From positions 38,380,001-38,444,000 of the forward strand of contig NW_024704742.1 in NCBI RefSeq assembly GCF_018977255.1: a DNA stretch of 64,000 nucleotides, written 5' to 3'. The notes under the pieces are model-generated. The model searched no databases, was not told the origin of the DNA, and saw only the letters and a program-made list of their open reading frames with translations. Shown piece by piece: positions 37,101 to 40,100 of this stretch. Both the position numbers and the translations under genes were made by a program. How positions within the stretch are numbered: position 1 is the first letter of the stretch; every line of letters starts with the position of its first letter. Source of the DNA: Callorhinchus milii (lineage: Eukaryota).

Positions 37101-40100
37101 TCTCATGATCGTCTCATGATATATAGAAGTTTTCTATACATCCTGCAGGTTACACAATGATTAAAATTTGGTCACATTGTTTTGAGTTATCCTTTTTATA
37201 AAGGAGAAGACTACTTGTCCTGCAAATATGAGTGTTTCCTGCCTTCACATAGCAGCGTGTGATTTATCGAGTGGGAATTAAATTGTCTTTAAACTGATCT
37301 GTACTCTTCTTGTAATTAGGAAGAGGGCCACTCTGAGTGGGTATCTTGTGTTCGCTTTTCACCAAACAACAGCAACCCAATCATTGTTTCCTGTGGCTGG
37401 GACAAGATGGTGAAGGTAAGAATGCAGCACATACACTTGTTCTTGGCTCAACTTATTCTGTAGTGCGTTACCTAGCTTGTCCAGCGTGTCACTCCTTAGG
37501 CAGAGTGGATTAATTCCTTTCCTTTATTTTCTCTTCACAGCTGTGCCTTGAGATAACAAATCTCAGTTTTTTGCCTTTAAGAATGGTCTGGCCGCACACT
37601 TTTAAGCTGGATCGTCCTCATTTCTACAATTGTGCGGTGTTTCGCAGGCTTGAGAATATGGGAGTAAATGGGATTTTAGTTTAAAGGTGCGTGTTCTGGC
37701 CGTTCTTAAAGGTGAGTGCTTTGCTTGCCTTTTTCCCCCTCTTTCTGTTTAGTATTGACTCACTTAGATGTATTAAGCATGAGCCAGACTGCACATGTCC
37801 AATGATTAAAACTTTCATTGCTGTTCACATAATGATTTGCTGTGATTATTGACTTATACAAATGAGGACATATGGTCAAATATGAATCGTACCAATATGC
37901 TGTCTGACTTTGTGTTTGATACTTTTGTGATTTAAGCCATTGATCACTGATTCAATCGTGTTCACAATGTGTGTAAAGGTTAGCCTACATTTTTTTAAAT
38001 GTGGGGATTTTGAAGATCATGCTATGTTAAACCTTTTTGTTGAACGTTATTGGTGGATATATCTGATTACACCGAACCCTCTCTGGGGGTGTGGAGAAAA
38101 GTCTGAGACACCCAAAGGATTGCTCTTTAAAAGAGCCAGCATAGTCAATGGGCTGAATGGCCACTTTCTGTGCTGTAAATTTCTATGCTTCTGTTTTTTA
38201 TTGAAGATTTTTTCTATCCTTTAAATTGTCTGTAGGTTTGGAATCTTACAAACTGCAAGCTGAAGACCAATCACATTGGGCACGTTGGTTACCTCAATGC
38301 TGTGACTGTCTCCCCTGATGGATCTCTCTGCGCCTCAGGTGGGAAGGTATGTCCTGCTGCTGTGGCCTTGAGACCACTTTTCTCACTCGGATCTGATCTG
38401 TCAGCATATTCTGCCCTTTTATTCTGTTTACCAGCTAAATATGTAACATTTGGTAAGTTCTACAATGTTGTGAGGGTCCCAAGATTGTGGGAGGGTGTGT
38501 TGCAGAAGTAACAATCTCTGCGGGGCCGAAGAGGCTGTTTTATTGTTGCTTAGATCAATTATTGAAAAGCCTATGTAAGTGGATGGGGCCCATAGTGTGT
38601 CATGTTTTCTGAATTGAAAGTGACAACCTGACTACTTGGGTACTTTATAACCCCAGACCAGTAAAACATCGTTTTCAGGCCCTGTTTTAATATAACTACA
38701 ACAATCTACATTTATGTAGCGTATTTCACATTGGGAGGATGTTTGGAGTCCTGTGGCTCAGTGGTTAGAGCACTCGCTTTGCAAGTGAGAGACCTGAGTT
38801 CAATTCCAGGCAGAGGGTGAAACCTCGGGCAAATTTCCTTACTCCACACTCCTAATAATCCCTCCAAAAAACAATAATAATAAATTGGTCATTTTCAATC
38901 CATGACTGTTTGTGGGACATTGCTGTGCACAATTGGCTGCCGCATTCGCCCACAAATATACAGTCAATTCACTTTACAGTATATTCTGTGAAGCGCTTTG
39001 GGATGTCTAGAAGACGTGAAAAGCGCTATATCAAATGCAAGGATTATTATTATGTTTCTAAGGGCTTTATACAGTTGACTAGAAGCCTGAGTTTGAGAAA
39101 GTGGAATCTTGTGTAGTGATTAACTTCTAACTTTGTATTTTCTATTTAGGATGGTCAGGCTATGCTGTGGGACCTGAATGAAGGAAAGCACTTGTACACT
39201 CTTGATGGTGGGGATGTCATCAATTCTCTGTGCTTCAGCCCCAACAGATACTGGCTGTGTGCTGCAACAGGTCCCAGCATCAAGATCTGGGTAAGAATTC
39301 CATGCATGCGGATATACATGGGTTGAGTTCTGAAAACACTTGTGCAAGTGAGCAGGGAGTTCACTGATCTTACTATGGAATATGTTAGCTGTGATGAAAC
39401 TCCTTCATATGCCTTTTCTGAGATGTACATGCGGAAACTTCAGAGGCTGTTTCTGAGCTAATTGGAAATTCTGAAATGATTGGGGAGGGGGGCTGATGTA
39501 CTTTTATTGCAGATTTTTACTCTGGTTATATGCAATTGCTGCACAAGTAAAATTGCCTTGCTTAATGTGAAAGTGGTATCTTCAGGAAGCGAGTGGCAAT
39601 AGGGTCCTTAAATTGTCGTGCTGAAACCACTGCCAGGCTTGTAAAAGTAAATCCCCTGTGGATCTGATTAAATACCTAATTAACCTTCAAGCGGCATTCC
39701 AATTTATAGTTATTTTTCTTGGTAACTGATCATAATTAAGTTTTAATTATATCAAAAATGTTTGTTCATATTCTAAAATTCAGCATAATCCAGCATTGCT
39801 TCTGCTGTTCTCGGTTTCCTATCTTTTAATCTTTTAGTTGTATATCTGTTATATCGTATTGAGTATCGTACAGATTTGTAGTTTGGAACTGTTATATCCC
39901 ATTACAAATTCTGTAGGCCTCCTCCCTAAAGCTGACTTATCTTTGCCTACACCCTTGACTCCAGGACCACTGCTGTTCTGACAGAATGTCTGTCAGACAT
40001 CAAGTCCTGGATGAGAGTTAACTTTCTTCAGTTGAACGTCAACAAGACCGAGGCTCTGCTGATTGGCTCCTGCCAGCGCCTCCTCACCTCAGGCGCTGAC

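Follow-up and report, generated by a model that had tools for sequence, protein, structure and literature searches.

A candidate poison exon overlapping a long predicted RNA hairpin in intron 4 of a RACK1 gene of Callorhinchus milii

INTRODUCTION

In human host genes of small nucleolar RNAs (snoRNAs), alternative splicing together with nonsense-mediated decay (NMD) uncouples the snoRNA from the host mRNA, as described by Lykke-Andersen et al. 2014 (PMC4233243). Here we describe a candidate for such an arrangement in a RACK1 gene of Callorhinchus milii, located in a stretch of 64,000 nucleotides (assembly GCF_018977255.1, contig NW_024704742.1, positions 38,380,001 to 38,444,000, forward strand), which we call the window and number from its first letter. 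The candidate is a 171-nt exon in intron 4 that carries a premature stop codon, overlaps a long predicted RNA hairpin and precedes a putative box C/D snoRNA. RACK1 resembles the human host genes (PMC4233243) in being highly transcribed, and would resemble them further through a putative intronic C/D snoRNA and a predicted isoform with a premature stop, the snoRNA being made either way. It differs in that those genes are human, that RACK1 (GNB2L1) is not named in the main text of that paper, and that exon inclusion and NMD sensitivity are predictions at the present locus. No report of a RACK1/GNB2L1 poison exon, or of alternative splicing coupled to NMD in this gene, was found in our literature search.

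Poison exons are well known in ribosomal-protein genes (for example, RPL3, RPL10A and RPL12), where unproductive splicing is conserved and autoregulated by the gene's own protein. RACK1, the receptor of activated C kinase 1, is a protein of the small ribosomal subunit. Like the exons of the RPL type, its candidate exon is a short intronic exon in a gene for a ribosome component and combines an in-frame stop with strong splice signals. In contrast to those conserved and self-regulated exons, the RACK1 candidate is known here from the sequence of one genome. Stem-loops that mask a 5' splice site are also well known, as at MAPT exon 10 and SMN2 exon 7 (terminal stem-loop 2, TSL2), and are short local stems of ~6-20 nt. 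In these cases, and by prediction at the RACK1 candidate, a helix takes in an alternative exon's 5' splice site and would limit access of U1 small nuclear RNA. The RACK1 hairpin is longer, at 145 nt and 37 outer pairs, most of it falling within the exon, and the predicted cost of opening its donor is not far from that of constitutive donors of the same gene. Splice-site-masking stems are thus a known kind, as is alternative splicing with NMD in snoRNA host genes related to the ribosome, and RACK1 would be an addition if junction reads confirm the exon.

A preliminary description of the window, made from the sequence alone, had proposed this exon as a structure-controlled switch that separates protein output from snoRNA output. 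Its sequence observation is confirmed by our analysis, and its interpretation is partly supported. A poison exon with low use, of a kind already known, is plausible, though unproven; as it stands, the unit is a well-formed candidate that makes a testable prediction rather than a demonstrated mechanism.

RESULTS AND DISCUSSION

An exon-like unit in intron 4 of RACK1

The host is a plus-strand WD40-repeat gene, whose exon translations match the WD40 family of Pfam and RACK1 in solved structures (PDB, E 6e-32). Three of its exon junctions are backed by RNA contigs (36982|37320, 37415|38236 and 38346|39150; the joint coordinates of the contig listing carry a cut offset of +2, for example 37413>38234 for 37415|38236). 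Exon 4 ends in phase 0 with the donor AAG|GTAAGA, and intron 4 (37416-38235, 820 nt) is flanked by the phase-0 exons 4 and 5.

We found a 3' splice site and a 5' splice site 171 nt apart in this intron. The acceptor, ...TTCCTTTCCTTTATTTTCTCTTCACAG|CTGTG, ends in CAG with 37540 as the final intron base; 19 of its 20 scored positions are pyrimidines, as against 13-15 of 20 at the four real acceptors of the gene that were scored. The last 14 nt are free of AG, and a branch-like TTAAT site lies 27 nt upstream. The donor is a perfect match to MAG|GTRAGT, a motif that occurs three times on the plus strand of the window (23282, 37711 and 40767) and once on the minus strand; the donor at 40767 agrees with the end of the exon-7 reading frame. 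Strong acceptors number 18 on the plus and 7 on the minus strand. On both strands of the window, 37540 and 37711 form the sole acceptor-donor pair spaced by 50-300 nt, where motif counts predict about 0.2 such pairs for each strand of the window and about 0.003 for intron 4. Judged by its sequence, the unit appears exon-like far beyond chance, its signals being by consensus stronger than those of RACK1's own exons, and at the motif level both flanking splice sites look functional.

Reading on from exon 4, the frame starts at 37541 and gives 47 codons, a TAA and nine further codons. The TAA is upstream of three later exon junctions, at a distance of more than about 50 nt, as expected of a poison exon. 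The junction of exons 5 and 6 was seen as an RNA-contig joint, and those of exons 6/7 and 7/8 are inferred from reading frames alone. Since the stop precedes three further junctions, NMD of a transcript that contains it is expected. The strong acceptor at 37541, the consensus donor at 37711/37712, the 171-nt exon between them and the in-frame stop ahead of later junctions, all of which had been named in the preliminary description, are present in the sequence.

The candidate exon has CU-rich sequence on both sides, namely the upstream tract and a second tract at 37718-37752, and repressors of the PTB type might bind there. Recursive splicing was considered and ruled out: the junction of exon 4 with 37541, AAG|CTGTGC, makes no 5' splice site. 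An antisense exon was likewise rejected; the reverse complement of the donor is no splice site.

A long predicted hairpin over the 5' splice site

Most of the candidate exon lies in an imperfect inverted repeat with arms at 37574-37608 and 37678-37712. The plus-strand RNA is predicted to fold with -69.2 kcal/mol (z -5.93, with none of 200 shuffles as good), and the minus strand with -43.1 kcal/mol (z -3.65). The outer stem comprises 37 pairs (15 A-U, 12 G-C and 10 G-U), and the apical 65 nt are self-folded and branched. We scanned 1064 segments of 180 nt across the 64-kb stretch and ranked the hairpin among those of similar G+C content, where it is the 4th most stable of 547 on the plus strand and the 7th of 1094 when the minus strand is counted as well. 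At -26 kcal/mol, its strand asymmetry is more negative than that of any other of the 547, five of which reach at least 26 in absolute value. In these models, the hairpin is real and more stable than chance, and the donor nucleotides are paired within it.

Donor positions -3 to +4 fall in the outer stem, because the predicted pairing reaches 37571/37715, and positions +5 to +8 pair with 37543-46 in the minimum-energy fold. Freeing donor positions -3 to +6 is predicted to cost 11.6 kcal/mol; this opening energy ranks second among the 23 AG|GT sites of the gene. All seven real donors are below this value (10.5, 3.1, 9.9, 5.8, 3.1, 3.1 and 3.6 kcal/mol). The donor is thus predicted to be occluded, yet not far beyond two constitutively spliced donors. 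The top opening energy of the 23 sites, 15.8 kcal/mol, is that of another donor-like site (AAG|GTGCGT at 37686|37687), which lies in the 3' arm of the hairpin right after the TAA.

Arms and fold agree with the earlier claim of a long stem at 37574-37712, the 3' arm of which covers the donor. The accompanying claim, that the deviations from perfect pairing are mostly G-U-compatible on the plus strand, holds as a count and loses weight against base composition. An ungapped comparison of the arms over 38 positions gives 27 Watson-Crick, 8 G-U, 1 A-C and 2 other combinations. A binomial estimate for eight G-U of nine is p ~0.11 given the sense-strand T content of 37%; the excess is weak because the sense strand is T-rich.

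A palindromic transposon remnant, such as a miniature inverted-repeat transposable element (MITE), with splice-like ends would explain the inverted-repeat architecture and the TTAA-containing arms, and repeat-derived sequence does lie further 3' in intron 4. Against this, genome searches with 180-nt and 261-nt queries (the latter at E<=10) return the locus alone from the 991-Mb assembly, and no target-site duplication flanking the hairpin is visible in the sequence. The hairpin is thus single-copy, not the high-copy palindromic MITE that the preliminary description had named as a refutation of its reading, and we regard such an origin as largely refuted and very improbable. A very old transposon family, decayed past the reach of BLAST, could still lie behind it. 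In a genome search with the full intron (at least 41 matches, from the best 40 of 1206 candidates scored), repeats were confined to the 3' portion of intron 4, at 37893-38202, of which 38107-38202 corresponds to a high-copy element of ~80 nt.

RNA contigs over intron 4

The RNA data are assembled contigs, not raw reads, and contig building drops rare variants. Four of 14 runs, none of them recorded as RNA and ten presumed to be so, were examined, of which X1, X3 and X4 were taken as RNA because spliced contigs are present; X6 has no exon contigs. The canonical joint 37415>38236 dominates, with depths of 6734 (X1), 11939 (X3) and 2733 (X4).

In X1, a contig of 725 nt with a depth of 50.5 covers 37539-38263. 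It spans the hairpin, which is therefore present in RNA. The sole RNA variant seen, 37669 T>C in this run, falls in an unpaired loop of the predicted fold, and the contig has no A>G differences over the stem that would point to adenosine-to-inosine hyper-editing.

The two ends of this contig are unlike each other. Its 3' end overlaps exon 5 by 28 nt, and the other branch contigs, in introns 3 and 5, overlap by 28-30 nt (for example, 36954-37347 and 38318-38771). Its 5' end, at 37539, has no overlap and no loose letters. The exon 4/37541 junction would read ...GAAG|CTGTG and the intron reads ...ACAG|CTGTG, and the two sequences are identical from 37539 onward. In a k-mer (de Bruijn) graph, a trunk begins where two paths merge. 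The contig start thus suggests a merge of the exon 4/37541 junction with the intron, that is, use of the acceptor.

The depth of X1 in bins points the same way. The bin 37395-37479 is wholly accounted for by exon 4, leaving zero intron cover at 37416-37479, and in the bin 37480-37564 about 260 depth-bases are unexplained once the 26 bases that the 50.5-deep contig contributes with its start are subtracted. Intron 4 is therefore nearly uncovered over its upstream 125 nt. From 37539 on, intron 4 has a depth of 50.5, as compared to 23.6 in intron 3 and 11-14 in intron 5. Plain unspliced pre-mRNA would not be expected to give this pattern, and the 37541 acceptor is probably used in roughly 0.5-1% of the transcripts of the X1 sample.

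The same contig could be explained by a decoy exon through which intron 4 is detained or partly retained: splicing factors would assemble on the strong sites of a structured exon that cannot finish splicing, and a fraction of the pre-mRNA with its snoRNA would be held back. This would account for one contig running from 37539 through the donor into exon 5 at 2-4 times the depth of introns 3 and 5, and for a donor that is paired in the predicted fold. However, contig depth is one mean per contig, here for a single run, and X3, X4 and X6 do not show the pattern. We consider detention of this kind improbable.

Is the exon used?

The evidence on the other side of the preferred reading, that of a genuine alternative exon unit, comes first from the same contigs. 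The canonical joint of exons 4 and 5 is more than 100 times deeper than the contig over the candidate region. Neither 37415>37541 nor 37711>38236 is among the 15 joints listed, besides which there are 62 further joints; contig building, as we judge it, tends to remove short paths of low depth that connect two very deep exons. A variant at 37538, the 5' end of an RNA or a gap in coverage could also account for the break at 37539. The X1 contig continues unspliced through 37711|37712 into exon 5, so that there is no support for use of the donor. In X3, X4 and X6, no contig covers 37541-37697, despite exon depths of 11939 (X3) and 2733 (X4). Gaps such as these, and that at 37416-37538 in X1, are gaps at the contig level and prove nothing alone.

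Comparative evidence also weighs against the exon. A second, intron-containing RACK1 gene lies on contig C13 (1045500-1055499, minus strand), with exons ~80% identical in DNA; its protein is presumably closer to the human sequence than that of the copy in the window. Intron 4 of this paralogue (409 nt) has nothing alignable to the candidate element, and the introns of the paralogue gave no Rfam snoRNA match at E<=1. The 47-residue peptide of the cassette has no match of near or greater length in a protein database of 5.8 billion clusters, which is weak evidence, and matches no Pfam family. As to the hairpin, several others of like stability exist in the window, the G-U bias is non-significant after composition, and the constitutive donors of exons 1 and 3 are nearly as costly to open (10.5 and 9.9 versus 11.6 kcal/mol).

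The depth of the canonical joint, the lack of a cassette joint among those listed, and the points on the paralogue, the peptide and the hairpin are what one would see at a pseudo-exon of no function, next to an inverted repeat that arose by chance or is decaying; any use of its acceptor would be splicing noise that NMD clears. Such a pseudo-exon is a rather unlikely explanation that nevertheless has to be taken seriously. It fails to account for a 19/20-pyrimidine acceptor and a perfect donor whose pairing is unique on both strands of 64 kb and expected ~0.003 times in intron 4, or for the z score and the extreme strand asymmetry of the hairpin. In addition, strong decoy sites in a very highly expressed gene should be counter-selected unless they are tolerated or useful. 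Weighing both sides, we tentatively favor a real alternative exon unit or acceptor of low use in RACK1 intron 4, the product of which carries a premature stop and would be degraded by NMD.

A putative box C/D snoRNA downstream of the hairpin

Human SNORD143 and SNORD144 lie in intron 3 of SEC31A and guide methylation of 28S ribosomal RNA (rRNA) at Um2402; splicing of the host intron has been proposed to modulate them, and methylation at this site varies in human cells (PMC11773364). The preliminary description had placed an RNA like these ~85 nt beyond the exon. We found a candidate whose start, 37796, is 84-85 nt downstream of the exon-like unit. It has a terminal stem of 5 bp (UGUCC/GGACA), a C box AUGAUUA (37802-08), a guide at 37819-30, a D' box AUGA (37832-35) one spacer base after the guide, a C' box GUGAUUA (37842-48) and a D box AUGA (37862-65). 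The C and D boxes depart from consensus. The Rfam match to sn1502 has identical ends (37796-37870) and a score of 18.4 bits (E 6.5), below threshold. The guide is a 12-nt perfect complement of the 28S rRNA of the same genome (L016 4594-4605, in the 28S gene at L016 2723-6697), with ~0.23 such matches expected by chance. By the fifth-base rule, the predicted target of 2'-O-methylation is the second U of CAUGUGAACAGCA, nucleotide 1875 of 28S rRNA, which we take to be the human Um2402 site.

The candidate resembles SNORD143/144 in its 12-nt guide next to a D'-like box and presumably in its predicted target, the second U of CAUGUGAACAGCA. It differs from them in its host (RACK1, not SEC31A), in its non-consensus boxes and in its non-significant Rfam match, and the equivalence of the sites is presumed. 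A label of the SNORD143/144 type is therefore plausible for what is a candidate RNA: the guide speaks for the earlier assignment, and the boxes and the Rfam score do not. The premise that the host is a ribosome-associated gene with a snoRNA is borne out by the PDB match to RACK1 and by this guide-like C/D RNA. Without the repeat-derived sequence at 37893-38202, the candidate would lie ~65 nt from the 3' splice site of intron 4, which is the usual spacing of intronic C/D snoRNAs. A SNORD95-like C/D RNA lies in RACK1 intron 6 at 39385-39460. Its Rfam score is 25 bits, where the gathering score is 55; its terminal stem is TTAGC/GCTAA, its boxes read TGATGA and CTGA, and 11 nt directly ahead of the D box match 28S rRNA.

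The hairpin apex (37614-37629) is complementary at 14 of 16 positions to the D box and 3' stem of the snoRNA candidate (37854-37869), 224 nt away. This pairing may be due to chance, about 0.1-0.3 cases being expected within 851 nt, or may be an alternative pairing that competes with assembly of the small nucleolar ribonucleoprotein. The apex complementarity also bears on another explanation, in which the hairpin is a small-RNA precursor (for example, a microRNA or hairpin RNA overlapping a splice site) or an element for snoRNA processing, and the splice signals are incidental. The 37-pair outer helix, the preference of the fold for the plus strand, the presence of the hairpin in the X1 contig and this inverted repeat (I2), joining the apex to the 3' end of the snoRNA, would all suit such a role. 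On the other hand, we found no Rfam match over 37541-37720, microRNA families included, at the gathering threshold or at E<=10, and the chance expectation just given is not small. A helix with a branched 65-nt apex also exceeds the standard length of a microRNA precursor. We therefore consider a small-RNA or processing role quite doubtful.

A tentative model for the candidate RACK1 poison exon

In the reading that we favor, the strong 3' splice site 37540|37541 would occasionally be joined to exon 4. Every such transcript would reach the TAA at 37682-84, whether by use of the 37711 donor, which would give the 171-nt cassette, or by retention of the rest of the intron, and would then be cleared by NMD. 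Pairing of the donor in the hairpin, together with the flanking CU-rich tracts, would most likely hold exon definition low, so that the canonical splice from exon 4 to exon 5 dominates. Both splicing routes would leave the snoRNA in an intron and thus release it either way; the unproductive isoform would therefore yield the guide RNA without RACK1 protein. We infer from this scheme the 'switch' and the 'uncoupling' of protein and snoRNA that had been proposed; use of the acceptor, decay of the product, repression by the hairpin and any regulation are likewise steps that the model predicts.

If this holds true, RACK1 would join the ribosome-component genes that curb their own mRNA by unproductive splicing, and a highly transcribed host gene would supply a methylation guide RNA whether or not its protein is made. 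The exon would then exert control ahead of a 28S site whose methylation varies, which would bear on ribosome heterogeneity. A bolder version is conceivable, in which folding of the 145-nt hairpin decides exon definition and its apex pairs alternatively with the 3' stem and D box of the neighboring snoRNA candidate, such that one RNA element sets the ratio of RACK1 protein to a guide of the Um2402 type. This structure-gated version is a long shot; if true, it would couple ribosome composition to rRNA modification.

Table 1. Positions of the candidate exon and of associated features in the window
Feature	Position	Strand	Basis
Candidate poison cassette exon, 171 nt, or start of an alternative 3' splice-site isoform	37541..37711	+	Splice motifs, frame, X1 contig
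Consensus 5' splice site AAG|GTGAGT, junction 37711|37712	37709..37717	+	Perfect MAG|GTRAGT; paired in predicted fold
In-frame TAA (premature stop) within the 3' arm of the hairpin	37682..37684	+	Frame translation
Long imperfect RNA hairpin, 145 nt	37571..37715	+	RNA folding, inverted-repeat search
Sub-intron of 125 nt that use of the candidate acceptor would create	37416..37540	+	Branch-point-like TTAAT near 37510-14, AG-free pyrimidine tract, CAG
Second C/U-rich tract ending in TTTAG, acceptor-like, 41 nt past the donor, 19/20 pyrimidines	37718..37752	+	Sequence
Box C/D snoRNA candidate	37796..37870	+	Sequence boxes, weak Rfam match, 28S complementarity
Repeat-derived part of intron 4	37893..38202	+	Full-intron genome search; ~300 nt match on C3, 69% identity
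RACK1 exon 4 (EEGHSEW...GWDKMVK)	37320..37415	+	Frame translation, WD40 Pfam match, RNA-contig joints 36980>37318 and 37413>38234
RACK1 exon 5	38236..38346	+	Reading frame and RNA-contig joints

Other features of the window

The strongest hairpin of the window for its G+C content is a near-perfect palindrome at ~5881-6060, with -107 and -104 kcal/mol per 180 nt on the two strands, and looks transposon-like. At ~46600-47300, the G+C content is 0.71-0.79 and the folding asymmetry reaches -59 kcal/mol in favor of the plus strand. Intron 5 of RACK1 contains tRNA-like repeats of the short interspersed element type (38750-39050), at which contig depth rises to 1.5 million with many spurious joints. 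Further tRNA-like matches are found at 36148-36210 on the minus strand and at 41574-41643 on the plus strand.

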